58,289 nt of DNA from Bacteroidota bacterium (GTDB lineage Bacteria > Bacteroidota > Ignavibacteria > UBA10030): contig JBBDYD010000136.1 in NCBI GenBank assembly GCA_040901865.1, positions 29,912 to 88,200 on the forward strand, written 5' to 3'. The stretch's first letter is position 1. The number at the start of each line of letters is the position of its first letter. This document shows positions 26,518-40,928 of this stretch, in pieces. The notes under the pieces were generated by a model. It made no database searches, was not told the origin of the DNA, and saw nothing but the letters and a program-made list of their open reading frames with translations. Both the position numbers and the translations under genes were made by a program.

Positions 26518-27732
26518 ATGACGATGGGGCTCAACATGTTCTTCCGCATCCTTGCCTGTTGCCTCGCTACAACCGCAGCACGGGGACAGGAACTCGAAAT
26601 CCTTGTAACGAATCCGTACAATGTCCGTCGAGCGAACGAACCCGTTGTCGTTCCCTACGTGGAGATTCAAAAGAATGTACCAACGGACCTCGCCAGGAAA
26701 CTCCGGCTCCTGGACGAAAGCAACCGGTCCATGGCATTTCAAGTGGACGATCTGGATGGAAACGGTTCACCGGACGAATTTGTGTTTGTAGCAGACTTTG
26801 CCCCAAATCAGGACCGGCGATTCGTGTTAACGTCCGGTGCCGATTCGCTCGCGCTTCCCGCGGGTCCATTCCGGACGGATGTTGCAAACTTCAAGCGGAT
26901 CGGAGGAGTTTCCGTGTCTGTGGACGATGACGACGGGCCGGGAACATTGCGGAGTCAGGGTCAATATCCGTTCGACGGTGTCGGATGGGAATCGGAGGTT
27001 ATCGGTTACCGTCTCTATCTGGATGAACGGAATGCGGTTGACATTCAGGCGAAGAAAATTCCCGGACTTCATTGGGCGTACATCGGCAATACGGGAGTGA
27101 ACTATCAGTTGGATGCGTATTGGGGGATGGATCCGCTCCATGTCGGCGGGGCCCTGGGGATCGGGGGAATGGGGTTCTGGATCAAAGACGCTGTGAATCA
27201 TCCGATGAGGCTTGATCGCCGTCGCTGCCGCGTCATTGCACGCGGGCCTGTTCGCGCCGTTGCACGCGTGGACTATGACGGCTGGGATATCGGAGGGGAA
27301 AAAGTTGATGTCACATCGTTGTTCGTCATCTATGGCGGAGATCGAATGACCGAGCACCGCGTGATGCTTCGGTCCGCCGCACCGAGAACGATCGCCGTCG
27401 GTATCGTAAAACATGCACACGCACGGGCCTCCTGGGATCCGGCCGCAGCGACCATGTTCACGGTTGGGGCACAATCGAGAACGAACGACTCGCTCCTGAT
27501 GGCGCTTACGTTCGATCCGGCCGCCGTTGTCAGGAAGACAGAAGACAAAGCGAATCACCTTGTATTGCTTCGCCTCGATAAGAACACGACGCTGAGATAT
27601 TTCATCTCGGCTTACTGGCAGGGCGAAACCGGGACAATGCTGAGCGAGTCCGGAACGAAGGATCTCCTGCAGACTATGAGGCGAAGATTGACCGAACCGC
27701 TTAACGTGCGGTTCATGAAACCACGACCATGA
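26518..27732 (+). CDS. DUF4861 domain protein
   Basis: Signal peptide. The GVGWESEVIGYRLYLDERNAVDIQAKK block matches my recollection of the DUF4861 family, which is commonly found in pectin and hexuronate loci. Confidence 0.6.
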   Translation: MTMGLNMFFRILACCLATTAARGQELEILVTNPYNVRRANEPVVVPYVEIQKNVPTDLARKLRLLDESNRSMAFQVDDLDGNGSPDEFVFVADFAPNQDRRFVLTSGADSLALPAGPFRTDVANFKRIGGVSVSVDDDDGPGTLRSQGQYPFDGVGWESEVIGYRLYLDERNAVDIQAKKIPGLHWAYIGNTGVNYQLDAYWGMDPLHVGGALGIGGMGFWIKDAVNHPMRLDRRRCRVIARGPVRAVARVDYDGWDIGGEKVDVTSLFVIYGGDRMTEHRVMLRSAAPRTIAVGIVKHAHARASWDPAAATMFTVGAQSRTNDSLLMALTFDPAAVVRKTEDKANHLVLLRLDKNTTLRYFISAYWQGETGTMLSESGTKDLLQTMRRRLTEPLNVRFMKPRP

Positions 27733-29198
27733 GCACACTATTCATTCATGAAGATATTCTGCTGGAAAACGGACGGGCAAAAGAACTCTATCATTCGGTT
27801 GCCAAGTCTCTTCCGATCATTGACTATCATTGTCACATTTCACCCAAAGACATAGCGGAGGACAGGCGGTTCCGCAACCTGACCGAGATCTGGCTTGCCG
27901 GCGACCATTACAAATGGCGGGCGATGCGGACCTGCGGCGTAAATGAACGCTTTATCACCGGAGGGGCGTCCGATTGGGAGAAATTCGAACAATGGGCGGA
28001 GACGGTTCCAAAGACGCTGCGCAATCCCCTCTATCATTGGACCCATTTTGAGCTGAAGAGGCCCTTCGGCATCGCCGATCGTCTTCTGAATCCCGAAACG
28101 GCAAAGAGCATCTGGCAAGAGTGCAACGCAATGCTTGGCACCCCGGAGTTTTCCACGCGCGGGATTCAGAAACAAATGAATGTCGAGATTGTCTGCACGA
28201 CCGACGATCCCGTCGATTCGCTCGAGGAACACAAGCAAATACGGGCGGCTCGTGAATTTCCGGTCCGAGTATACCCCTGTTTCCGCCCTGACAAGGCGAT
28301 GACGCCGGAGGATCCGAAACTCTTCCGGCAGTACGTCGGATTGCTCGAAGAGGCGGTGCGCGGGGATATTCGGACGTTCGATGATTACATCACGGCTCTG
28401 CGAAAACGCCACGAATACTTTCACCGTGCGGAATGCCGACTTTCGGACCACGGGCTGGAAACCGTCTATGCCGAGTCGTACACCGATCGGGATGTGAAGG
28501 CGATCTTCAGGAAACTGCGCCTAGGGCGGAAGATCACATCGCTTGAAGCCCTTAAATTCCGGTCCGCCATGCTGTACGAACTTGCCGTCATGGATTGGGA
28601 ACAGGGATGGACCCAGCAGTTTCACCTGGGCGCCCTGCGCAATACGAACGCAAGGGCCCACAGGGTCAACGGTCCCGACACCGGATACGACTCGATCGGC
28701 GATTTTGAGCAGGCGAGGCCCCTCGCCCGGTTTCTCAATCGGCTCGAATCGGAAGAGAAGCTCACGAAAACGATCCTCTATAATCTTAATCCTCGTGACA
28801 ACGAACTCTTTGCCTCCATGATCGGCAATTTCCAGGACGGCTCCGTTCCGGGGAAACTGCAGTACGGATCCGCATGGTGGTTCCTGGACCAGGCGGACGG
28901 CATGACCCGGCAGATCGATGCCCTTTCCAACATGGGCATTCTGAGCCAGTTTATCGGAATGCTGACGGATTCGCGAAGTCTGCTGTCGTATCCGAGGCAC
29001 GAGTACTTCCGGCGGCTCCTTTGCAACATCCTCGGCGGCGAAATGGAACGGGGATTGATCCCGAACGACTTGAACCTCGTCGGCGCGATGGTCCGAGACA
29101 TTTGCTACTTCAACGCAAAGCGCTATTTCAATTTTCCGGAACTTGAACACTCGGCGAGTAGTTCTGAACAACCGCGGCGGGTAGCCGCAACCTCATGA
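27729..29198 (+). CDS. uxaC: Glucuronate isomerase
   Basis: 489 aa. PIIDYHCHISPKDIAED..F.NLTEIWL.GDHYKWRAMR..GV is the canonical UxaC N-terminus. Confidence 0.92.
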   Translation: MSTLFIHEDILLENGRAKELYHSVAKSLPIIDYHCHISPKDIAEDRRFRNLTEIWLAGDHYKWRAMRTCGVNERFITGGASDWEKFEQWAETVPKTLRNPLYHWTHFELKRPFGIADRLLNPETAKSIWQECNAMLGTPEFSTRGIQKQMNVEIVCTTDDPVDSLEEHKQIRAAREFPVRVYPCFRPDKAMTPEDPKLFRQYVGLLEEAVRGDIRTFDDYITALRKRHEYFHRAECRLSDHGLETVYAESYTDRDVKAIFRKLRLGRKITSLEALKFRSAMLYELAVMDWEQGWTQQFHLGALRNTNARAHRVNGPDTGYDSIGDFEQARPLARFLNRLESEEKLTKTILYNLNPRDNELFASMIGNFQDGSVPGKLQYGSAWWFLDQADGMTRQIDALSNMGILSQFIGMLTDSRSLLSYPRHEYFRRLLCNILGGEMERGLIPNDLNLVGAMVRDICYFNAKRYFNFPELEHSASSSEQPRRVAATS

Positions 29199-29947
29199 AT
29201 CTCTTCGACCTCAAAGGAAAAACCGCCGTTGTCACAGGCGCCAGCACCGGACTCGGCCGCGCGATGACGCTCGCGCTTGCAGCGTCGGGCGCCGACATTC
29301 TTCTTGTTGACCACTCGAAGAAAGAAGAAACGGCCCGTGAAGTAAGAACCCTGGGCCGCAAGGCAGTTGCGATGGAGGCAGATCTTGCGCGCATGGATTC
29401 GGCAGAGAAGATCGTGGGGAAGGCGATCGTCGAATTCGGAAAGGTCGACATTCTGGTGAACAACGCCGGGATTATCCGCAGGGCTCCAGCGCTGGAATTC
29501 TCTGAACAGGATTGGGATGATGTTCTGGCTGTGAATGCGAAATCGGTTTTCTTTCTGGCCCAGGCGGCCGCGCGTGATATGATGAAGCGGAAATCCGGGA
29601 AGATCATCAACGTTGCATCCCTGCTTTCGTTTCAGGGAGGTATTCTGGTGCCGTCCTATGCTGCGAGCAAAGGCGCTGTCGCACAGCTTACCAAGTCCCT
29701 CGCCAACGAATTGGCCGCGTATGGCATCACGGTAAACGCGATCGCTCCCGGCTATATGGAAACCAACAATACAAAGGCGCTCCGGGAGGATCCGGTTCGC
29801 TCAAAGTCCATCCTCGAACGCATTCCCGCGGGGCGATGGGGCGTCCCTGATGATCTGGGCGGCGCGGTGGTGTTTCTTGCCTCGTCCGCGTCAGACTATG
29901 TCAACGGCCATGTGCTGGTGGTTGACGGCGGATGGATGGCCCGGTAA
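29195..29947 (+). CDS. kduD: 2-dehydro-3-deoxy-D-gluconate 5-dehydrogenase
   Basis: 250 aa SDR. Long collinear identity with E. coli KduD as I recall it (DILVNNAG.IRR..ALEFSE.DWDDV, KIIN.AS.LSFQGGI.VPSY.ASK, RIPAGRWG.P.DL.G..VFLASSASDYVNG....VDGGW.AR). Confidence 0.9.
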   Translation: MNLFDLKGKTAVVTGASTGLGRAMTLALAASGADILLVDHSKKEETAREVRTLGRKAVAMEADLARMDSAEKIVGKAIVEFGKVDILVNNAGIIRRAPALEFSEQDWDDVLAVNAKSVFFLAQAAARDMMKRKSGKIINVASLLSFQGGILVPSYAASKGAVAQLTKSLANELAAYGITVNAIAPGYMETNNTKALREDPVRSKSILERIPAGRWGVPDDLGGAVVFLASSASDYVNGHVLVVDGGWMAR

Positions 29948-29970
29948 CACACTTAACTCAGGACACGTCA

Positions 29971-30804
29971 ATGGAAGTCCGATATCTCCCGAATCAGGAA
30001 GCGTATAAAAGTCTGGAGACCGAGGAATTACGTCGGTCGTTTGTCATGGAAACGTTGTTCCAGCCGAATGCGGTCTCGATGGTGTATTTCGAGACAGACC
30101 GGTCGATCGTCGGCGGTGTGCTGCCGGGTGACGCTCCGTTAAAGCTTCTGCCCACGCGGCAGGAAATGGCATCGGACTATTTTACGGAACGAAGGGAAGT
30201 CGGCATTGTGAATGTCGGCGGCAATGCGGTCGTGCGTGTTGACGATCACGATCACACGCTGCATGGCAACGATATGCTCTACGTCGGGCGTGGAAAAAAG
30301 AAGATCGAATTTCGCAGTCAGGACAATAAGACCCCCGCCGCGCTGTATTTTGTTTCCTATCCGGCCCATGTCGATTATCCCGATACGCTCGTCCAGCACA
30401 GCGAGGCCGAAAAAGTGACCATCGGGTCCGCGGAAGGAGCCAACAAGAGGACGATCAACAAGTACATTCATACGGGCGGCATCAAAAGCTGTCAGCTCGT
30501 GATGGGACTGACGCAGCTGGAATCGGGAAGCATCTGGAACACCATGCCGGCGCATACGCATCAGCGCCGTTCCGAGGTCTATCTGTATTACGCCCTCGGG
30601 CCCGACGATCTGGTGGTTCACCTGATGGGAACGCCGCGGGAAACGCGCAACATTATTCTACGCGATCGACAGGCGGTGATCTCCCCGAGCTGGTCGGTGC
30701 ATTGCGGGGCCGGTACGCGCAACTATTCGTTCGTCTGGGCCATGGGCGGAGAAAACCAGGAGTTCTCCGACATGGATGGCGTACCGATGCCGTCGCTGCT
30801 GTAA
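29971..30804 (+). CDS. kduI: 5-dehydro-4-deoxy-D-glucuronate isomerase
   Basis: 277 aa. RRTINKY, WNTMP.HTH.RR.EVY.Y, AVISPSWS.H.G.GT..Y.F.W.M.GENQ.F.DMD match KduI. Start at MEVRY, preceded by AGGA. Confidence 0.9.
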   Translation: MEVRYLPNQEAYKSLETEELRRSFVMETLFQPNAVSMVYFETDRSIVGGVLPGDAPLKLLPTRQEMASDYFTERREVGIVNVGGNAVVRVDDHDHTLHGNDMLYVGRGKKKIEFRSQDNKTPAALYFVSYPAHVDYPDTLVQHSEAEKVTIGSAEGANKRTINKYIHTGGIKSCQLVMGLTQLESGSIWNTMPAHTHQRRSEVYLYYALGPDDLVVHLMGTPRETRNIILRDRQAVISPSWSVHCGAGTRNYSFVWAMGGENQEFSDMDGVPMPSLL

Positions 30805-30837: not shown

Positions 30838-32139
30838 ATGAAACTGGAACAGTATTCAATAGGAATAGGTGACCGTTTTGGAATGGAATGTGTCGCTCAG
30901 CTCCGCGCGCTTCAAATGGCGGAGTCGCACGGAGTGTCCGTCGTTCCCGTTTGGAACAAATCGAACCGCGAGCACACGATCATCGGAACGATCCCCGGTG
31001 ACGCGCGCCGGGCAGCCGATGTAGCGGTACAATCGTGCGGGTGGACGGCATCCTATTACGTGGACGCCGATCATATCGGCCTAGCGACGGTGGAGAAGTT
31101 CCTTGAGCCGAGTAATTTTTTCACCATCGACGTGGCTGATTTCATCGAAAAACAGGCTTCTGCCGATGTCCTCTCTTCGTTTGTCAAGGACATGAGCCGC
31201 TTTCGGGGTTCGCGGGCCATTCCGGGTGTTGAACGCCCTTTGAGCGTCAGTGACGAATTCCTGGCTGCTGTCGCCGCAAAGTACGCGCTTGCTGTCCGGG
31301 AGGCCGGCAAGGTGTACCGGTTCATAGCTGAACGAAAGGGAGCAGACAATTTCATTGCGGAGATCTCCTGTGACGAAACCAATACCCCGCAGTCACCGGC
31401 GGAACTGTTCTTCATTCTGGCCGCCGTGGCAAAGGAAGGCGTGCCGATCCAGACGATCGCACCGAAGTTCAGCGGATCGTTCCTGAAAGGCGTGGATTAT
31501 GTCGGCGAGCTTCGCCAGTTCAGGCAGGAATTCGAAGACGACCTGGCCGTCGTGGCGCATGCCAGGAGCGTGTTCGATCTTCCGAAGAACCTAAAACTGA
31601 GCATTCATTCCGGAAGCGATAAGTTTTCCTTATACCCCATCATGCACGCGGCGATGAAGAAGTTCGATGCCGGTCTTCACCTGAAGACCGCCGGAACGAC
31701 CTGGCTGGAAGAAGTCATCGGCCTTGGCTCTGCTGGGGGTGACGGGCTTCTCTTTGCAAAGGAAATTTACGCCGAAGCGGTCAAACGCTTCGACGAGCTT
31801 GCGAAGCCATACGCGACGGTCATTCACGTCGATCGGAATGCACTTCCCGACCCGGCCACCGTTGCCCGCTGGAGCCCGACGGAGTTTTCAGAGGCCCTGA
31901 CGCACGATCAAGGCTGCCCGCGCTTCGATGGACAATTCCGCCAGCTCATTCACATTGCCTTCCGGCTTGCGGCGGAGAGGGGAGAACGCTTCCGGGATCT
32001 TCTCCGATTACACCGGGAATCGATCGAAGCGAATGTGACTGGGAATCTCTTCGACCGGCATATCCTTCCATTGTTCCTCGGGGCAACCGCAAAGGACGAA
32101 CGCCTGACAGCTGCAGCAAATCCGGCCGCGACGATATGA
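30838..32139 (+). CDS. uxaE: Tagaturonate/fructuronate epimerase (UxaE family)
   Basis: The GIGDRFG, VDADHI, SCDETNTPQSP, SIHSGSDKFSLYP and HLKTAGTTWLEEV blocks parallel those of Thermotoga maritima UxaE as I recall them. Confidence 0.7.
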   Translation: MKLEQYSIGIGDRFGMECVAQLRALQMAESHGVSVVPVWNKSNREHTIIGTIPGDARRAADVAVQSCGWTASYYVDADHIGLATVEKFLEPSNFFTIDVADFIEKQASADVLSSFVKDMSRFRGSRAIPGVERPLSVSDEFLAAVAAKYALAVREAGKVYRFIAERKGADNFIAEISCDETNTPQSPAELFFILAAVAKEGVPIQTIAPKFSGSFLKGVDYVGELRQFRQEFEDDLAVVAHARSVFDLPKNLKLSIHSGSDKFSLYPIMHAAMKKFDAGLHLKTAGTTWLEEVIGLGSAGGDGLLFAKEIYAEAVKRFDELAKPYATVIHVDRNALPDPATVARWSPTEFSEALTHDQGCPRFDGQFRQLIHIAFRLAAERGERFRDLLRLHRESIEANVTGNLFDRHILPLFLGATAKDERLTAAANPAATI

Positions 32140-33149
32140 TGGGCCATTCACACGCGGGCCGGCTCCAATCAACCCTCCTTCGGCATTCTGTCATTGCATT
32201 GATACTGCTCGTTACCGGACCGGCATGCCGGGGCGTGACCGAGGTGACAGTGCTGAAACTCGCCCACGGACTGGACCGGACCCATCCCGTCCATGTCTCC
32301 ATGGAGCACATGGCCCGGCTTGTTCAGGAACGATCGGTGGGAAGGATGCGCATTGACATCTACCCGAGCGGCCAGCTCGGCACCGAACGCGAATGCCTTG
32401 AGCTTGTCCAGATCGGGAGTCTTGCAATGACAAAGGTCTCTTCAAGCGTCCTGGAAGGATTTGCCCCGTCGTTCAAGGTGTTCAGCCTGCCGTACTTGTT
32501 TCGGGACGAGGAGCATCGGTTCAGGGTCCTGGACGGTGAGATCGGTCAGCGCCTGTTGATGGAAACCGAGCCGTTCCGGCTCCTGGGACTGGTATACCTT
32601 GATGCCGGGAGCCGAAGTTTCTACTCGAAAGACAAGCCGATCCTCACACCGGAAGATCTCCGGGGAATGAAGATACGCGTGCAGGAAAGCGCCACCTCGA
32701 TGAAGATGATCCAGGCGCTCGGCGGGTCCGCCACGCCGATCGCGTGGGGCGAGCTCTACACGGCTCTTCAACAAGGTGTTGTCGACGGCGCCGAGAATAA
32801 TCCCCCGTCGTTCTACACGTCACGTCATTATGAGGTCTGCAAATTCTATTCGTTGAACGAACATACGGCAGTTCCTGATGTCATGATCATCAGTACCGTT
32901 GTTTGGAATTCGCTCACTCCCGAGGAGCAGGGGATTCTACGGCAGGCGGCGAGTGACGCGAAAGAAGTACAAAAAATCCGATGGCGGGAAGCGTCTGCTG
33001 AAGCACTGGCAAGGGTCCAAGAGGCCGGCGTGACCATCTATCATCCTGATCGGACTCTCTTTGCAGAGAAGGTCCGCCCGATGGTCGAGCAATTCAAATC
33101 GGAACCGGCAGTCTACGATCTGATCCTGAAGATCAGAGGTGCACAATGA
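32136..33149 (+). CDS. TRAP transporter substrate-binding protein (DctP family)
   Basis: 337 aa. Signal or lipoprotein-like N-terminus. LKLAH......HP.H......A..V.E.S.G.M.I.IYP..QLG.E and GAENN motifs. Confidence 0.85.
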   Translation: MMGHSHAGRLQSTLLRHSVIALILLVTGPACRGVTEVTVLKLAHGLDRTHPVHVSMEHMARLVQERSVGRMRIDIYPSGQLGTERECLELVQIGSLAMTKVSSSVLEGFAPSFKVFSLPYLFRDEEHRFRVLDGEIGQRLLMETEPFRLLGLVYLDAGSRSFYSKDKPILTPEDLRGMKIRVQESATSMKMIQALGGSATPIAWGELYTALQQGVVDGAENNPPSFYTSRHYEVCKFYSLNEHTAVPDVMIISTVVWNSLTPEEQGILRQAASDAKEVQKIRWREASAEALARVQEAGVTIYHPDRTLFAEKVRPMVEQFKSEPAVYDLILKIRGAQ

Positions 33150-33649
33150 CCCTTGAACGTGTTCGCTCCTCGGTCGACAAGGCAGTTGAGTGGATGCTGA
33201 TTGTCGTATTTGCGACGATGACACTCAACGTGCTCTGGCAGGTATTCACACGGTTTGTACTTGGTGATCCGAGTTCCTATACCGAGGAACTTGCCCGCTA
33301 CCTCCTTGTCTGGTTGGGGTTGCTCGGCGGCGCCTATGCTGTCGGCAAGAAGATGCATCTCGCCATCGACATTGTTCCAACTCTCGTCAAAGGTCGTCGC
33401 CGGCACATGCTCGAGATATTCATTCAATCTTCCATTTTTGTGTTTGCTATCGGCATTGTGCTGTTGGGTGGACTGAACCTCGTCGGATTGACATTGACGC
33501 TGCGGCAGGTTTCCGCGGCCCTTCAGATTCAGCTCGGATATGTCTATCTTGTTCTTCCGGTCAGCGGAGTTCTGATGATGTTTTATTCGGGAACGTACAT
33601 TCTTGAAAGCATTGGGGCCCTCAGGGAGGACCGGCATGGAATGGATTGA
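33146..33649 (+). CDS. TRAP transporter small permease (DctQ family)
   Basis: 167 aa with four hydrophobic helices. W.EEL.RYL.VW...LG...A motif. Lies between the DctP and DctM genes. Confidence 0.85.
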   Translation: MTLERVRSSVDKAVEWMLIVVFATMTLNVLWQVFTRFVLGDPSSYTEELARYLLVWLGLLGGAYAVGKKMHLAIDIVPTLVKGRRRHMLEIFIQSSIFVFAIGIVLLGGLNLVGLTLTLRQVSAALQIQLGYVYLVLPVSGVLMMFYSGTYILESIGALREDRHGMD

Positions 33650-34934
33650 AGTGATTGTCCTGGTTGGCGTCTTCGGCATGCTGATCTCGGCCGGTGTTCC
33701 GATATCGTTCTGCATCGGAATTGCGACCGCGGTCACCATGCTGGTGACGATCATGCCGATGCCTGCCGTTACGACCGTGGCGCAGAGAATGGCAACGGGG
33801 TTGGACAGCTTTGCACTGCTCGCGATCCCGTTCTTTATATTGTCGGGACAATTGATGAACAGAGGGGGAATAGCCCGGCGCCTTATCGAATTTGCAAAAG
33901 TGCTCGTGGGAATGCTCCCCGGTGGTCTGGCCTTTGTCAATATCATGGCAAATATGTTGTTCGGATCGATTTCCGGTTCTGCCGTCGCGGCAGCTTCGGC
34001 CATTGGCGGATTTATGACGCCGTTGATGGATAAGGAGGGATACGACCGCGATTTCAGCGCTGCTGTGAATATTTCCTCGGCGACAACTGGTTTGCTCATC
34101 CCCCCGAGTAATGTTCTAATCGTCTATTCCCTGGCGAGCGGCGGGGTTTCCATCGCCGCGCTGTTTCTCGCAGGCTATATTCCGGGCATTCTCCTTGGAA
34201 TCATGCTCATGAGCGTTGCAGCAGTAATCGCAATTCGCCGAAAGTATCCGGTGGGAGGATTCGTTCCCGTGCGAGAGGCGCTGTTGAAGCTCTTTGATGC
34301 GGTCCCCAGCCTCTTGCTTGTCGTCATCGTCATGGGAGGTATTGTCCTCGGATATTTCACCGCAACGGAGGCATCAGCCATCGCCGTCCTGTACACCTTT
34401 GTTCTCTCCGTGATCGTCTACCGCGAGGTCAAGGTCTCGGAACTTCCGGGAATCCTGCTCTCTGCCGCGTCCACGACAGCCATCGTCATGCTCCTGATCG
34501 GAACTTCCATGGGAATGTCCTGGATCCTGGCCTATACGAACATTCCGCAAAATGTGAGCGCCGCCCTGTTGGGGCTCACGGATAACAAGATCATGATCCT
34601 GCTGATCATCAATCTGATTCTGCTGACCGTCGGAACGTTCATGGACATGACGCCGGCCGTGCTTATTTTTACGCCGATCTTCCTTCCCGTTGCCGTGGGT
34701 CTGGGTATTGACCCGGTTCATTTCGGTATTATCATCGTATTCAATCTCTGTATCGGGCTTTGCACCCCGCCCGTCGGAAGCGTGCTGTTCGTGGGTGCGG
34801 GAATCGCCAATATCACCATCGCAAAGATCATTCGACCGCTCATGCCGATGTTTCTTGCGATGATCGTTTCGCTGCTTATCGTCACCTATGTACCGGATAT
34901 TTCATTATTCGTTCCGAGATTGTTCGGATTCTAA
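33636..34934 (+). CDS. TRAP transporter large permease (DctM family)
   Basis: About 432 aa polytopic membrane protein. Start at MEWIEV, overlapping the dctQ end. Typical DctM blocks (LLAIPFFILSG.LM..GG...RL). Confidence 0.88.
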   Translation: MEWIEVIVLVGVFGMLISAGVPISFCIGIATAVTMLVTIMPMPAVTTVAQRMATGLDSFALLAIPFFILSGQLMNRGGIARRLIEFAKVLVGMLPGGLAFVNIMANMLFGSISGSAVAAASAIGGFMTPLMDKEGYDRDFSAAVNISSATTGLLIPPSNVLIVYSLASGGVSIAALFLAGYIPGILLGIMLMSVAAVIAIRRKYPVGGFVPVREALLKLFDAVPSLLLVVIVMGGIVLGYFTATEASAIAVLYTFVLSVIVYREVKVSELPGILLSAASTTAIVMLLIGTSMGMSWILAYTNIPQNVSAALLGLTDNKIMILLIINLILLTVGTFMDMTPAVLIFTPIFLPVAVGLGIDPVHFGIIIVFNLCIGLCTPPVGSVLFVGAGIANITIAKIIRPLMPMFLAMIVSLLIVTYVPDISLFVPRLFGF

Positions 34935-34952
34935 AAACATCGGGTATCAATC

Positions 34953-35780
34953 GTGAAGCCAATTGGAGAATCGTACGATTTCTCAAACCGCACCGTGGTG
35001 ATCACCGGCGGTACGGGTGTCCTGGGCCGCTCAATGGCTCTGTCACTTTCAGCCTGCGGAGCAAATGTTGCAGTGATTTCGAGAAACCCTTCGAAAGCAT
35101 CAGACCTTCTTGAGCAGGCAAAAAAGACCCGCGGGACGATGAAGGCCTTCGGGGCGGACGTTGTGGACAAGAAGGGCCTTGAGAAGGCGAACGCGGACAT
35201 CCTTGAAGCATTTGGGAAGATCGACTGCCTGATCAATGCAGCTGGGGGCAACAGCCCCATGGCCACGACCAATAACGATCGATCCTTCTTTCAGTTAAGC
35301 GAGCAGGGCCTGCGGGATGTTTCCGATCTCAACCTGCTCGGCACAATCCTGCCCTGCCAGGTGTTCGGTAAGGTGATGGCCGATAACAAAGAAGGCGTGA
35401 TCTTGAATGTGACGTCGGTTGCCGGTCTGCGCCCGCTGACTCGCGTTGCCGGGTACGCGGCCGCCAAAGCGGCGGTCAGTAATTTCACCCGATGGCTCGC
35501 CGTCACCATGGCGCAGGAGTTTTCTCCTGCCATTCGGGTCAATGCCCTGGCTCCCGGATTCTTTCTCACCGAGCAGAATCGGTTTCTACTGACCGATGAA
35601 AAAACGGGAGCGCTCACGGAGCGCGGCCAAAAAATCATCGCCCATACCCCCATGGGACGCTTTGGAAAGCCCGAAGACCTCAACGGCGCCGTTCTCTGGC
35701 TGCTTTCACCAGCATCCGAGTTCGTCACCGGAATTGTGGTGTTTGTCGATGGGGGATTCTCAGCGTATTCAGGCGTCTGA
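34953..35780 (+). CDS. SDR-type D-mannonate oxidoreductase / fructuronate reductase-like
   Basis: 275 aa. TGGTGVLG Rossmann motif, catalytic YAAAK, and the FFLTEQNR loop typical of the SDR UxuB/YjmF-like group. GTG start. Confidence 0.65.
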   Translation: MKPIGESYDFSNRTVVITGGTGVLGRSMALSLSACGANVAVISRNPSKASDLLEQAKKTRGTMKAFGADVVDKKGLEKANADILEAFGKIDCLINAAGGNSPMATTNNDRSFFQLSEQGLRDVSDLNLLGTILPCQVFGKVMADNKEGVILNVTSVAGLRPLTRVAGYAAAKAAVSNFTRWLAVTMAQEFSPAIRVNALAPGFFLTEQNRFLLTDEKTGALTERGQKIIAHTPMGRFGKPEDLNGAVLWLLSPASEFVTGIVVFVDGGFSAYSGV

Positions 35781-35787
35781 TGTCGTT

Positions 35788-36957
35788 ATGCTTAAACAAA
35801 AGCCCGTCATCGTTGTCAACCGCAGCACACCCTTCGCAGCGGAGGTTTTCGCGCATCTCGGTGAAGTGATCGCCCTCGAATCCGCCGAGGTGACGAACAA
35901 GACTGTCCGGGACGCCGATATTCTCATTGTCCGTTCGGAAACCAAAGTCGACAAAACGCTGCTCGAAGGCAGCCGGGTTCGGTTTGTCGGAACCGTCACG
36001 ATCGGAACGGACCACATCGATCGCAGCTACCTGAATTCCAAAGGCATCACCTTCGCCAGCGCTCCGGGCAGTAATGCCAATTCGGTTGCAGAATACGTCG
36101 TAGCCGGACTGCTCACATGGGTCGGCCGGACAGGTCAATCGCTGAAGGGAAAGACGATCGGCATCGTCGGGGTCGGGAACGTAGGGAGCAAAGTGGTGAA
36201 CGTCGTGCTAGCGCTCGGGATGATCCCCCTTCTGAATGATCCGCCGCGGGCCCGGAAGGAATCCGAATCATCCTTTCTTCCGCTCGACGAACTGATGAAT
36301 GCCGATTTCATCACACTGCACGTTCCGCTGGCAACGAGCGGGGATGACGCCACCCTTCATTTGTTCGACAAGCAGCAAATAGGCAAAATGAAGCGCGGGT
36401 CGGTGCTCATCAACACTTCGCGGGGAGCTGTTGTTGAGACTGCCGCACTGCAGAATGCACTTGCCTCCACTCACCTTTCAACCGCCATCCTCGATGTTTG
36501 GGAACACGAACCCGTCATCAACAAGGAACTCCTTGATCGCGTTATGCTCGGTACGCCGCATATCGCCGGCTATTCCCTGGACGGCAAACTAAACGCGCTG
36601 AAAATGGTGTACGAGGACGTTTGCAATTTTTTGGACGTTCAACCGGATTGGTCTGTGGATGCCGGCGCCCCGGAAGGGTCATCCCGCCTTCAGTTGCCTG
36701 CTCATCTGAAGAACGAGATGGCGTTGGCGTTTGCTGTCCGACAAGCGTATGATATTGAACTCGATGATTCCCTGTTGCGGGAAGCATCCGCGATTACCGA
36801 TGGCCGTCCGGGGGAACATTTTATGAACCTGCGGGCCGAGTATCGCATCAGGCGCGAATTTGGCAATTTTGAGGTCCAACTTTATCAGGTCGGGCCTGGT
36901 GCCGTCCTCCAACAACTTGGATTCAGGACGCTCGTACAGGAGACAGCGCGGCTGTGA
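35788..36957 (+). CDS. D-isomer-specific 2-hydroxyacid dehydrogenase, PdxB (4-phosphoerythronate dehydrogenase)-like
   Basis: 389 aa. GIVGVGNVGSKV NAD motif. PdxB-like N-terminal catalytic domain and an extra C-terminal domain. Start placed at the first ATG after the upstream stop. Confidence 0.65.
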   Translation: MLKQKPVIVVNRSTPFAAEVFAHLGEVIALESAEVTNKTVRDADILIVRSETKVDKTLLEGSRVRFVGTVTIGTDHIDRSYLNSKGITFASAPGSNANSVAEYVVAGLLTWVGRTGQSLKGKTIGIVGVGNVGSKVVNVVLALGMIPLLNDPPRARKESESSFLPLDELMNADFITLHVPLATSGDDATLHLFDKQQIGKMKRGSVLINTSRGAVVETAALQNALASTHLSTAILDVWEHEPVINKELLDRVMLGTPHIAGYSLDGKLNALKMVYEDVCNFLDVQPDWSVDAGAPEGSSRLQLPAHLKNEMALAFAVRQAYDIELDDSLLREASAITDGRPGEHFMNLRAEYRIRREFGNFEVQLYQVGPGAVLQQLGFRTLVQETARL

Positions 36958-38222
36958 GTACGATCGGAAAAGGGTCAGCAGAACAAGCGCTTTCAGATTC
37001 TGAGATCAGGGAGATCTGCTCCCTGGCCTTCTCAGCCCCGGTCTTTGAAGGAAAACGGGTTCTCGTTCTTATTCCGGACCACACCCGCCATGCGCGCATT
37101 GACCTGTTCTTTCACATTATCTGTGATCTCCTGATCAAGCGAACGAAGTCGCTGGATTTTCTTATTGCCACCGGCACGCATGCCGATATGGAGCCGGAGA
37201 GGATCTATCGGCATGTAGGGATCACGCAGGCCGAGCATCGGTCGAAGTTCGCGACTGTCCGTTTCTTCAATCATGAGCACCAAAACCCTGCTGCCCTGGC
37301 GGCGATCGGCACAATCCCTGCGGATGAAATCGAACAGGTCACCCGCGGAGTCTTTGCGGAGCCGCTGGAGATCACGGTCAACCGGAAGGTCCTCGAATAT
37401 GATCACGTGATCATCGTTTCGCCGGTTGTACCGCATGAAGCGATGGGGTTCGCAGGTGGAAACAAGTATTTTTTCCCCGGAATTGCAGGACTGAAAGTCA
37501 TTGAGACGTTCCACTGGCTCGGTGCCATACTCACCAATCCGGCTGTCAACGGCGTCAAAGACACGCCCACGCGGCGGCTGATCGAGCGAGCCGCTGAATT
37601 CATATCGACGCCTCGCACCTGTCTGGCGTTTGCCGTCGACGAACGCAACAACCCCCGGTGTTTATTCATCGGAGATCCGAAAGGAGCATGGTCCCGCGCT
37701 GCGGATTATTCTGCAAGCCTTCACATCAGCTATGTCGACAAACCGTATGAAACGGTGCTTGCGATCACCCCGGACCTTTATGAAGAAGTATGGGTGGGAG
37801 GAAAGGCGATGTACAAACTCGAACCAATCGTCGCCGACGGGGGAGAGGTGATTATTTACGGACCGCAGATCAAACAGATCTCGTTTGTCCATGAAAACGA
37901 CATTCGGCGAATCGGCTACCATGTCGTGGAGTATTTCACGAAGCAATGGGAGCGATTCAAGCATGAGCCGAAACTGATCCTGGCGCATTCGACGAACGTT
38001 CGGGGGATCGGAACATTTGCAGACGGGGTCGAGAGGCCTCGCATTAATGTCACGCTTGCCACATCCATTTCGGAGGAGATCTGCAAAAAGGTCAACCTTG
38101 GTTTTCGTGACTATCGCACAATCGACCTTAAGGCGTGGCGGTCAAAGAAGGATAAGAACACGATGGTTGTGGAGAATGCGGGGCAGAATTTATTTCGATT
38201 AAAGAACGGTCAAACACACTGA
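36954..38222 (+). CDS. LarA-like (DUF2088) nickel-pincer-nucleotide-dependent 2-hydroxyacid racemase/epimerase homolog
   Basis: 422 aa. ATGTH (His76) and PHEAMGFAGGNKYFFPGIAGLKVIETFH, with His161, Lys171 and His187 spaced 10 and 16 residues apart. This is the same spacing as His174/Lys184/His200 of L. plantarum LarA. GTGA overlap with the upstream gene. Confidence 0.75.
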   Translation: MSTIGKGSAEQALSDSEIREICSLAFSAPVFEGKRVLVLIPDHTRHARIDLFFHIICDLLIKRTKSLDFLIATGTHADMEPERIYRHVGITQAEHRSKFATVRFFNHEHQNPAALAAIGTIPADEIEQVTRGVFAEPLEITVNRKVLEYDHVIIVSPVVPHEAMGFAGGNKYFFPGIAGLKVIETFHWLGAILTNPAVNGVKDTPTRRLIERAAEFISTPRTCLAFAVDERNNPRCLFIGDPKGAWSRAADYSASLHISYVDKPYETVLAITPDLYEEVWVGGKAMYKLEPIVADGGEVIIYGPQIKQISFVHENDIRRIGYHVVEYFTKQWERFKHEPKLILAHSTNVRGIGTFADGVERPRINVTLATSISEEICKKVNLGFRDYRTIDLKAWRSKKDKNTMVVENAGQNLFRLKNGQTH

Positions 38223-38261: not shown

Positions 38262-39344
38262 ATGAGTAACGATCTGAAGATCCCAAGTACCGGAGCCCTT
38301 GATTTTGTTTCTCTGGGAGCTCTTGTCCACCGTCTGGATCCCGGGATCATACCGTTCCGCAAGGCAAGTTCCTGTTCGATTCACGTCAGTGGAGGCGAAT
38401 TCAACGCGGCGGCGAACCTCGCAGACTGCTTTCGAATGAACACAGGGATCGCAACCGCCATGGTTGATTATCCGATCGGTGATCTGATTGCCGAACGGGT
38501 GCGGGCAATGGGAGTGAAGCCGTTCTACAAGCATTTCAAGCACAATGGCGTGACCGGGCCGAACATGGCGACGGTGTATAGCGACCGAGGGCATGGTGTT
38601 CGGGGTCCTGTGGTGTTTTACAACCGAAGCAACGAAGCGGCGGCGCAGTTGAAACCGGGTGATTTCGACTGGAAAACCATATTCGCGGGTGGTGTGCGAT
38701 GGTTTCACAGCGGCGGGATCTTCGCGGCCCTGTCGGAATCAACGGGCGAAGTGATCGTTGAGGGCATGAAGGCGGCCAAGAAGGCCGGTGCGATCGTGAG
38801 CTTCGATCTCAACTTCCGCGAAAAACTCTGGAACCTTTGGGGCGGACAGAAAAAAGCCGTGGAAGTGATAGCGAAAATCGTGGAACATTGTGACGTGCTC
38901 GTGGGAAACGAGGAGGATCTGCAAAAAGGCCTCGGCATTGCCGGGCCCGAAGTGGAAGCGAAATCCAAACTCGATCCCGGCACGTTCTTCGGGATGATTG
39001 GCAAAGTGACGGCAAAATATCCGCAGGTCAAAGTCGTAGCGACAACTTTGCGGGAAGTGCACTTGACGAATCATCACAGCTGGAGTGCCGTGGCCTGGGT
39101 TGACGGGAAAACCTATTCAGCACCTACCGCAGAACTCGACGTCATAGACCGGGTCGGCGGAGGAGACGGATTTGCGAGCGGATTCTTCTACGGCTTGCTG
39201 GCTGGAGAATCCCCGGAAGAAGCAGTGAAACTCGGATGGGCGCACGGAGCACTTCTCACCACGTTTCCCGGCGACACAACAATGTCCACCGTCGAACAAG
39301 TCCGCGCCTTTGCAAAAGGCGGCTCTGCGAGAATACAGAGGTAG
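38262..39344 (+). CDS. kdgK: PfkB family sugar kinase, probable 2-dehydro-3-deoxygluconokinase
   Basis: 360 aa. GGEFN.A, a C-terminal DRVGGGDGFASGF ATP/anion-hole motif, and the hexuronate operon context. Confidence 0.7.
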   Translation: MSNDLKIPSTGALDFVSLGALVHRLDPGIIPFRKASSCSIHVSGGEFNAAANLADCFRMNTGIATAMVDYPIGDLIAERVRAMGVKPFYKHFKHNGVTGPNMATVYSDRGHGVRGPVVFYNRSNEAAAQLKPGDFDWKTIFAGGVRWFHSGGIFAALSESTGEVIVEGMKAAKKAGAIVSFDLNFREKLWNLWGGQKKAVEVIAKIVEHCDVLVGNEEDLQKGLGIAGPEVEAKSKLDPGTFFGMIGKVTAKYPQVKVVATTLREVHLTNHHSWSAVAWVDGKTYSAPTAELDVIDRVGGGDGFASGFFYGLLAGESPEEAVKLGWAHGALLTTFPGDTTMSTVEQVRAFAKGGSARIQR

Positions 39345-39473: not shown

Positions 39474-40928
39474 ATGCCCTCAAAAGCTGACATAGGCCTG
39501 GTAGGACTCGCCGTCATGGGAGAAAACCTCGTCTTGAACATGGAAAGCCGTGGATTCACGGTTGCTGTTTTCAATCGTACTGTCGATAAAGTCAATCAGT
39601 TCGTTCAGGGAAGGGGAAAAGGAAAGAACGTCATCGGAGCCAAATCAATTCCTGAACTTGTACAATCCCTTAAAAAACCCCGCAAGATCATGCTGATGGT
39701 CAAAGCGGGAAAACCCGTGGACGACCTCATTGGTCAGCTTCTGCCGCATCTCGAACAAGGGGATATTGTGATCGATGGGGGAAACTCACATTTCCCCGAT
39801 ACCATTCGCAGAACAAAATACCTCGAAGAGAAAGGGATGTTATTCATCGGTACCGGAGTTTCAGGCGGCGAAGAAGGGGCCTTACGCGGTCCTTCGATCA
39901 TGCCGGGAGGTTCGTCGGCCGCGTGGCCGCATGTAAAGCCCATCTTCCAATCCATTGCCGCAAAGGTGGAGGACGGAACCCCGTGCTGCGACTGGGTTGG
40001 TGAAAACGGGGCGGGACATTTTGTGAAGATGGTGCACAACGGAATCGAGTACGGTGACATGCAGCTCATTTGCGAGGCCTATCAGATCATGAAGGAGCTG
40101 CTGGGGATGAACGCGGGTGAAATGCATGAAGTCTTCAAACAGTGGAATACGGGTGATCTGGACAGCTATCTGATCGAGATCACACGCGACATCCTGGCGC
40201 ACAAAGATGATGACGGCAGTGCTCTTGTTGACAAGATCCTCGATACTGCGGGACAGAAAGGAACGGGGAAATGGACGAGTGTCTCGGCGCTGGATCTTGG
40301 AATCCCGTTGACGCTGATCAGCGAAGCCGTGTACGCACGGTGCCTCTCGGCAATGAAAACTGAACGTGTTGCGGCTGCCAAAGTGCTGAACGGCCCGAAA
40401 CCGGTGTTCACCGGTGACCGCGCGACTTTCCTGCGGGATCTGGAACATGCTCTCTATGCGTCGAAGATCGTCTCGTACGCTCAGGGGTTCACGCTGCTTC
40501 GCTCAGCGGCGGCTGAGTTCAAGTGGGACTTGAAGTATGGTTCCATCGCACTGATGTGGCGGGGCGGATGCATCATTCGGTCGGCATTTCTCGGCAAGAT
40601 CAAGGAGGCATTCGACAGAAATCCCGATCTGGCGAACGTTCTGCTCGATTCATTCTTCAGGCAGAAGATCGAGGAGTCTCAGGCGGCATGGCGGAGGGTG
40701 ATCGCGGCGGCAGTTCTCAACGGTATCTGGATCCCGGCGTTCTCCACAGCGTTGAATTACTTCGACGGGTACAGAAATGCCCGCCTTCCGGCAAACCTGT
40801 TGCAGGCTCAGCGCGATTACTTCGGCGCTCATCAGTACGAACGGATAGATAAGCCTGTCGGGGAATTTTTCCACACGAATTGGACGGGTCGCGGCGGAGA
40901 AACGGCTTCAACGGCGTACGTGGCCTGA
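39474..40928 (+). CDS. gnd: 6-phosphogluconate dehydrogenase (decarboxylating)
   Basis: 484 aa. IGLVGLAVMGENL.LN..S.GF, DGGNS.F.DT.RR, GTGVSGGEEGA..GPS.MPGG and HFVKMVHNGIEYGDMQLI are canonical Gnd blocks. Confidence 0.93.
   Translation: MPSKADIGLVGLAVMGENLVLNMESRGFTVAVFNRTVDKVNQFVQGRGKGKNVIGAKSIPELVQSLKKPRKIMLMVKAGKPVDDLIGQLLPHLEQGDIVIDGGNSHFPDTIRRTKYLEEKGMLFIGTGVSGGEEGALRGPSIMPGGSSAAWPHVKPIFQSIAAKVEDGTPCCDWVGENGAGHFVKMVHNGIEYGDMQLICEAYQIMKELLGMNAGEMHEVFKQWNTGDLDSYLIEITRDILAHKDDDGSALVDKILDTAGQKGTGKWTSVSALDLGIPLTLISEAVYARCLSAMKTERVAAAKVLNGPKPVFTGDRATFLRDLEHALYASKIVSYAQGFTLLRSAAAEFKWDLKYGSIALMWRGGCIIRSAFLGKIKEAFDRNPDLANVLLDSFFRQKIEESQAAWRRVIAAAVLNGIWIPAFSTALNYFDGYRNARLPANLLQAQRDYFGAHQYERIDKPVGEFFHTNWTGRGGETASTAYVA

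Follow-up and report, generated by a model that had tools for sequence, protein, structure and literature searches.

The best described relatives of the gene treated here are enzymes that depend on the nickel-pincer nucleotide (NPN). Two of them, GntE2 (LarAH20) of Thermotoga maritima, whose structure is PDB 4NAR, and GntE1 (LarAH19) of Corynebacterium glutamicum, have both been shown to be NPN-dependent D-gluconate/D-mannonate 2-epimerases (PMC7583248), and a third GntE is classified as LarAH15 (PMC11770544). GntE of T. maritima was first proposed from its gene context (as reported in PMC7583248 and PMC6978723). LarA, Mar2 and GntE2 have in common an NPN-binding set of residues (R75, K184 and H200) and a catalytic set (D72, H108, H174 and K298) (PMC7583248), and GntEs carry the signature E, V, A and H at the positions of F175, F176, W358 and T359 of LarA (PMC11770544). 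Here we describe larAH, a gene of the LarA superfamily in a 58,289-nucleotide stretch of DNA from a Bacteroidota bacterium of the Ignavibacteria lineage UBA10030 (assembly GCA_040901865.1, contig JBBDYD010000136.1, positions 29,912 to 88,200); the whole of this stretch is called the window below. Judged from its sequence, predicted fold and gene context, larAH probably encodes a functional NPN-dependent C2 epimerase of the GntE branch that interconverts D-mannonate and D-gluconate. The enzyme type, the cofactor and the shunt from hexuronates into the pentose-phosphate pathway have all been published already and the picture of nickel-pincer enzymology is unchanged; larAH is a sound annotation and not a new kind of enzyme.

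The gene is one uninterrupted reading frame, and its GTG start shares four nucleotides (GTGA) with the TGA stop of the upstream gene. An earlier note on this DNA, made from the letters alone, had read four residues in the translation and equated them with active-site residues of Lactobacillus plantarum LarA. Both readings hold. The motif ATGTH ends at His76, and PHEAMGFAGGNKYFFPGIAGLKVIETFH contains His161, Lys171 and His187 at spacings of 10 and 16. In a phmmer alignment the last three residues pair with H174, K184 and H200 in the stretch HFFAGFSGGRK...H of L. plantarum LarA (8ezf/5huq), and a 17-sequence profile aligns larAH residues 20–301 to LarA residues 50–315 (5huq), which covers the whole N-terminal domain and helix 11 and brings D42, R45, H76 and K284 into register as well. 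In alignment A1, which consists of 17 homologues that are 39–82% identical to the larAH protein, none of the seven residues varies. The family assignment is further given by Pfam Lar_N (PF09861; 79.7 bits against a cut-off of 23.3, E 2.3e-22). The gene and the codons in question lie as follows.

36954–38222, plus strand: larAH, LarA-superfamily gene for a predicted GntE-type NPN-dependent hexonate 2-epimerase; 422 amino acids, GTG start.
37077–37088, plus strand: codons of Asp42 to Arg45 (PDHTR), corresponding to the catalytic Asp72 and the NPN-binding Arg75 of LarA; profile alignment, invariant in A1.
37179–37181, plus strand: codon of His76 (ATGTH), corresponding to the catalytic His108 of LarA; profile alignment.
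37434–37442, plus strand: codons of His161, corresponding to the catalytic His174 of LarA, and of Glu162-Ala163, the specificity "loop" (E followed by V, S or A in GntEs); alignments, signature from PMC11770544 and PMC7583248.
37464–37466, plus strand: codon of Lys171, corresponding to the NPN-tethering Lys184 of LarA; phmmer and profile.
37512–37514, plus strand: codon of His187, corresponding to the Ni ligand His200 of LarA; phmmer and profile.
37803–37805, plus strand: codon of Lys284 (WVGGK), corresponding to the catalytic Lys298 of LarA and preceded by Gly, as in G286-K287 of GntE2; profile.
37983–37988, plus strand: codons of Ala344-His345 (LAHSTNVRG), the A-H half of the GntE signature; the AH..NVRG stretch is also found in 4NAR.

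An AlphaFold2 model built on A1 is confident (mean predicted local distance difference test score 90.3, predicted template modelling (TM) score 0.89). When the model was compared with the PDB by Foldseek, 4NAR was the best match (E 2.5e-43, TM-score 0.89), followed by 9EIA, 2YJG, 5HUQ, 6C1W and 8EZH at TM-scores of 0.71–0.77. Two Mar2 apoproteins in the open conformation, 7S91 and 6D6Z, reached about 0.55, and no other match was convincing. L. plantarum LarA (5HUQ) has the same fold, at a TM-score of 0.72, and the same seven residues in register, and thus the same proton-coupled hydride-transfer chemistry would be expected of larAH. The two proteins differ in that they are only 16% identical in the structural alignment, and in that the bulky F175/F176/W358 pocket of LarA is replaced by E/A/A in larAH, a change suited to a polyhydroxy acid.

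The genes for cofactor synthesis, whose presence the earlier note had named as a check, were searched for by profile in the host genome assembly (3.0 Mb, 220 contigs, 93% complete), and larB (NF033503, 270.1 bits against a cut-off of 175), larC (PF01969, 446.1 bits) and larE (TIGR00268, 319.3 bits against 150) were all found, each over its curated cut-off. Moreover, larC is present in five of five other genomes that carry the larAH clade. The host LarE (contig C171, which is L002 1483–2322) combines an SGGxDS PP-loop with a CxxC...C motif, and a LarE with the latter motif is of the [4Fe-4S] type, as is that of T. maritima (PMC9283937). The host enzyme is therefore predicted to be of the [4Fe-4S]-dependent, non-sacrificial type, unlike the single-Cys LarE of L. 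plantarum. By homology to LarA and GntE, NPN would be made by LarB, LarE and LarC; in larAH, His187 as the Ni ligand would hold it together with Lys171 and Arg45, and His76 and His161 would alternate as acid and base. The hydride at C2 would be parked on C4 of the NPN pyridinium, leaving a transient 2-keto acid, and would then be returned on the opposite face.

Is the protein nevertheless a non-catalytic or cofactor-less DUF2088 relic, or does it bind NPN for another purpose? In its own branch, four representatives of 50%-identity clusters (P0130, P0141, P0165 and P0228) carry substitutions at the tethering Lys, at the His that ligates Ni or at catalytic His/Lys positions, and such degenerate members are the ground for the question. 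These four are candidate degenerate or re-purposed LarA homologues in their own right. Since some representatives of the branch lack them, it is informative that larAH keeps all catalytic and cofactor residues and that these are invariant among relatives 39–82% identical. In addition, the protein is of full length and its predicted fold is confident, the host has larB, larC and larE, the place in the operon is conserved and the orthologues in relatives are intact. In-frame stops were flagged in the matches of five relatives, and the two that were inspected proved to be the stop codons at the gene ends, which the aligner had run past; both of these genes are intact. We thus regard a relic as extremely improbable. 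The register, the predicted fold and the lar genes together favour what the earlier note had argued, namely an active NPN-dependent racemase or epimerase rather than a degenerate DUF2088 protein. By fold, by cofactor-holding and catalytic residues and by the lar genes of its host, larAH belongs to the LarA superfamily as far as sequence-based evidence can place it.

Within the superfamily, T. maritima GntE2 is the best match of larAH in both sequence and structure, at 34% identity. The sequence search returned 4NAR at E 5.5e-68 (2.4e-96 with a profile), and the structure ranked second, that of a LarA apoprotein, came at 2.3e-09. Besides sharing the NPN-binding and catalytic residues, the two proteins agree in the pocket, where the second His is followed by E, helix 11 contains G-K and helix 14 contains AH..NVRG; G283-K284 and N348 (NVRG) of larAH match G286-K287 and N348 of GntE2. 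At the four signature positions larAH has E162, A163, A344 and H345. The second position is occupied by V, S, A, I or M in the representatives of the branch, and the Ser of GntE2 stands against the Ala of larAH. Lactate racemase identity was rejected, as larAH scores 61.7 bits with the lactate racemase equivalog NF033504, below its cut-off of 460. Its best full-length NCBIfam match is NF052594, a model for the LarAH18 "putative hexonate epimerase", at 169.7 bits, yet this is far below the cut-off of 500 and similarly low scores are obtained with proxies for the GntE1 type (162 bits) and the GntE2 type (191 bits); LarAH18 is a sister subfamily to that of larAH.

As stand-ins for GntE1 and GntE2 we used actinobacterial loci (Brachybacterium, Corynebacterium) and P0174, which matches 4NAR at E 1.3e-170; Corynebacterium fragments are 65–93% identical to the actinobacterial clade that was taken as the GntE1 type. 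In a quick maximum-likelihood tree, read with the LarA paralogue of the host genome, a distant outgroup, as its root, larAH groups with good support with homologues from Bacteroidota, Myxococcota, Nitrospirota, Elusimicrobiota and other phyla, and the clade so formed lies inside a branch that also holds the actinobacterial (GntE1-type) and the Thermotogae/Atribacterota (GntE2-type) clades. By phylogeny C. glutamicum GntE1 is the nearer of the assayed groups: the actinobacterial proxy clade is 39–46% identical to larAH and in the same sub-branch, and representatives of the GntE1-type branch have the same signature residues. The proxy loci differ from the window in that uxuB, pdxB and pfkB are not next to the gene.

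The operon around larAH has the order uxaC-kduD-kduI-uxaE-TRAP-uxuB-pdxB-larAH-pfkB-gnd, co-directional and tightly spaced, and it stands in a pectin-utilisation region that includes TonB-dependent receptors, GH88 and a LacI-type regulator. Its other genes are listed here (SDR, short-chain dehydrogenase/reductase; KDG, 2-keto-3-deoxygluconate; TRAP, tripartite ATP-independent periplasmic).

27729–29198, plus strand: uxaC, uronate isomerase; Pfam UxaC 660.2 bits.
29195–29947, plus strand: kduD-like SDR, unsaturated-uronate branch to KDG.
29932–30804, plus strand: kduI, unsaturated-uronate branch to KDG.
30838–32139, plus strand: UxaE-family tagaturonate/fructuronate epimerase; Pfam UxaE 186.4 bits.
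32136–34934, plus strand: TRAP transporter DctP-DctQ-DctM.
34953–35780, plus strand: UxuB-type SDR, D-mannonate oxidoreductase (fructuronate reductase); NCBIfam PRK08277 353.9 bits against a cut-off of 281.
35788–36957, plus strand: pdxB, PdxB orthologue of the 4-phosphoerythronate dehydrogenase type; ATG at 35788, stop overlapping the larAH start.
38262–39344, plus strand: PfkB-family sugar-acid kinase, KdgK paralogue and candidate gluconate or mannonate 6-kinase; Pfam PfkB, PDB 2afb (KDG kinase) E 1.4e-46.
39474–40928, plus strand: gnd, decarboxylating 6-phosphogluconate dehydrogenase; TIGR00873 780.3 bits.

Locus contexts were obtained by tblastn of the window proteins against the loci and by Pfam/NCBIfam scans of the clustered neighbours that this left unidentified. 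Five related loci from Ignavibacteria/Bacteroidota show synteny with the window over the block uxuB-pdxB-larAH-pfkB-gnd. Of 90 loci of the larAH clade, from many phyla, 45 have a UxuB-type SDR near larAH, 44 have Gnd there and 19 have a PfkB-type kinase. The GntE2-type loci of Thermotogae/Atribacterota have uxaE, the uxuB-type SDR and gnd in common with the window, and their order uxaE-uxuB-gnd-larAH matches the T. maritima module. The window differs from that module in that its operon has pdxB and a PfkB kinase, while gntK is beside gntE in T. maritima (PMC6978723), and in that it comes from a mesophilic, Ignavibacteria-like host that has a TRAP system for uptake. Taken together, every GntE feature that was checked computationally, that is proximity to 4NAR, the signature and the linkage to UxuB and Gnd genes, is present in larAH. 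This supports a predicted specificity of the characterised GntE branch rather than a novel one.

On this assignment, hexuronates would be taken up by the TRAP transporter and isomerised by UxaC, UxaE would funnel the products to fructuronate, and the UxuB-type SDR would reduce fructuronate to D-mannonate. A search of the 93%-complete assembly found no mannonate dehydratase (UxuA), and mannonate would therefore be epimerised at C2 to gluconate by larAH. The adjacent PfkB kinase may then form 6-phosphogluconate, which Gnd would convert to ribulose-5-phosphate. A KdgK-Eda pair is encoded on another contig (C79, positions 1118–2928) and can serve the KDG branch of KduI and KduD, so that the PfkB paralogue in the window would be free for the hexonate step. 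A GntE-type assignment would thus explain how an Ignavibacteria-like pectin degrader, with no mannonate dehydratase found in its assembly, catabolises hexuronates, which would be routed through 6-phosphogluconate into the pentose-phosphate pathway. Annotation is affected as well, since current pipelines would label larAH a "nickel-dependent lactate racemase" or "lactate racemase domain-containing protein", as they do its homologues.

Several points weigh against this assignment. The second signature residue of larAH is Ala and not the usual Val, neither larAH nor the GntE branch is covered by an NCBIfam equivalog model, and the tree is a quick version whose deep forks are poorly resolved. The assembled larC frame runs off the end of contig C60, where the assembly is cut. 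In the same assembly neither a P-loop gluconokinase GntK nor an FGGY match reaching the gntK cut-off was found, and because no canonical gluconate kinase was found the kinase step would fall to a PfkB paralogue that is uncharacterised and has a KDG kinase as its closest relative of solved structure. Finally, the three assayed GntEs have a Km of 9.4–120 mM for free D-mannonate (PMC7583248, PMC11770544), and with so high a Km free mannonate may not be the physiological substrate.

The last two points lead to a different order of steps, in which the PfkB kinase first phosphorylates D-mannonate and larAH acts as a 6-phosphomannonate 2-epimerase that delivers 6-phosphogluconate to Gnd. Such a sequence is known from Lactobacillus suebicus, in whose extracts mannonate is converted only with ATP, via 6-phosphomannonate to 6-phosphogluconate (PMC6978723). 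The net route is the same as the one proposed here, from mannonate to 6-phosphogluconate without a dehydratase and then to Gnd; the difference is that in L. suebicus the step order has been shown in extracts only and the genes, that of the epimerase included, are unassigned. In the literature searched, no paper besides PMC6978723 mentions 6-phosphomannonate. The flanking of larAH by a sugar-acid kinase and gnd in an assembly where a canonical gluconokinase was not found would agree with this order, as might R350, a basic residue near the distal end of the predicted pocket that is K or R in 17 of the 26 other representatives. On the other hand, GntE1, GntE2 and LarAH15 epimerise free mannonate and gluconate, GntE2 with a kcat of about 200 per s, and no LarA homologue has been reported with a phosphorylated substrate; the term "phospho" is absent from PMC11770544. 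We consider it unlikely, though less so than the other alternatives, that phosphorylation comes first. The wider form of the idea, that the PfkB paralogue is the missing mannonate kinase and the widespread GntE-type clade the 6-phosphomannonate 2-epimerase of the route seen in L. suebicus, is in our view doubtful to the same degree. If true, one branch of the nickel-pincer enzymes would act physiologically on phosphorylated sugar acids, and there would be an explanation for the millimolar Km values that assayed GntEs show with free mannonate.

The kinases and other neighbours vary among the loci. The PfkB kinase beside larAH is 74–86% identical across loci of Ignavibacteria, Myxococcota, Bacteroidota and Chloroflexota (L032–L037, L044, L056, L062 and L084), and larAH itself is only 45–63% identical in the same loci, a higher conservation of PfkB which suggests that the kinase is either strongly constrained or was transferred recently. 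Loci of other phyla (L038–L040, L045, L055, L060 and others) have, in the larAH-gnd cluster, a HAD_2 hydrolase of about 298 amino acids, found in 28 of the 90 loci. A pyrophosphate-dependent (PPi) phosphofructokinase, PRK14072, occurs in 14 of 90 larAH loci and never alongside the PfkB kinase. This phosphofructokinase-family gene was rejected as an alternative hexonate kinase, since NCBIfam puts it over the cut-off in PPi-phosphofructokinase PRK14072, and its mutual exclusivity with PfkB is therefore not counted as evidence. No close homologue of either the HAD_2 hydrolase or the PRK14072-type enzyme was found in the host genome. A transketolase also lies in one larAH-gnd locus.

The gene directly upstream had been taken in the earlier note for a 2-hydroxyacid dehydrogenase coupled to larAH. 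As a statement on position this stands, given the four-nucleotide overlap, but a biochemical link is unsupported. The pdxB product has all of the Pfam domains 2-Hacid_dh, 2-Hacid_dh_C and DUF3410 (dimerisation), scores 418.4 bits with NCBIfam NF001309, just under the cut-off of 434, and matches the Salmonella PdxB structure 3oet over its full length, DUF3410 included, at E 1.2e-78. It is the sole PdxB-like gene of a host genome that is PdxJ-positive and PdxS-negative. Five genomes of other lineages in which pdxB is directly upstream of larAH likewise have a single PdxB each and are PdxJ-positive and PdxS-negative. Since the neighbour is an ordinary-looking PdxB and the only one in such a genome, direct biochemical coupling to the epimerase is unsupported, and its product is most simply read, from sequence, as a 4-phosphoerythronate dehydrogenase. 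A specialised paralogue was rejected: the gene is the only strong PdxB match in the host and in the five genomes, and pdxB also occurs in 15 of the 40 relatives searched, all 15 of them without larAH.

A functional partnership would have larAH work with the PdxB-like dehydrogenase on a different 2-hydroxy acid, for example by epimerising a phosphorylated tetronate at C2 (4-phosphothreonate to 4-phosphoerythronate) or by acting on another sugar acid, with the dehydrogenase then oxidising the product. Beyond the overlap of stop and start, the association itself speaks for it: pdxB is directly upstream of larAH in 13 of the 76 loci with sufficient upstream sequence, from several phyla, and is adjacent in all nine of the 40 relatives that have larAH. 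Yet no PdxB is near larAH in 77 of the 90 loci, where the UxuB-type SDR and Gnd are each found in about half, the specificity residues match GntE, and the dehydrogenase looks like the ordinary PdxB described above. The relatives without larAH are telling as well, for there pdxB stands beside gnd or uxuB (pdxB then gnd in G006, uxuB then pdxB in G010), so that pdxB appears tied to the operon, and especially to gnd, rather than to larAH. Besides the window, the loci that bear on this placement of pdxB are L036, L045, L047, L055, L057, L060, L077, L082 and L122–L125. We therefore think a dehydrogenase partnership highly unlikely, clearly more so than a phosphorylated substrate, and keep to the mannonate/gluconate 2-epimerase. 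As for why pdxB should accompany gnd, 4-phosphoerythronate inhibits 6-phosphogluconate dehydrogenase (PMC6449344), and for that reason one could speculate that PdxB, or the HAD hydrolase of 28 of the 90 loci, protects the flux through Gnd.

Homologues of larAH were matched in at least 591 genomes of a species-representative collection, and by this count the dehydratase-free hexuronate route would be widespread. Within its own lineage the gene is patchy: nine of 40 relatives (G006–G045) have it, and a genome of the same genus is without it. Such an occurrence fits an accessory, possibly mobile, catabolic module. In one relative (G024; L125 6186–7457) the slot of larAH is taken by a true LarAH18 member, which scores 669.9 bits with NF052594 and is 27% identical to larAH, in the order kdgK-LarAH18-pdxB-gnd-uxaE. 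Two LarA subfamilies thus swap within one operon among related genomes, which suggests, by analogy of position, that the LarAH18 member may have the same role.

The host genome encodes a second LarA homologue, a near-canonical lactate racemase on contig C79 (L025 7789–9072, minus strand; NF033504 453.6 bits against the cut-off of 460), 26% identical to larAH over 206 residues. It lies in a fucose/rhamnose cluster, between a bifunctional rhamnulose-1-phosphate aldolase/dehydrogenase and rhamnulokinase and beside L-fucose isomerase, a placement that fits racemisation of lactate derived from lactaldehyde. Among the homologues, P0137 is a protein of 2030 amino acids with a GntE-like domain (40% identical) at residues 1104–1544, possibly the product of a fusion or a multidomain form from a eukaryote.

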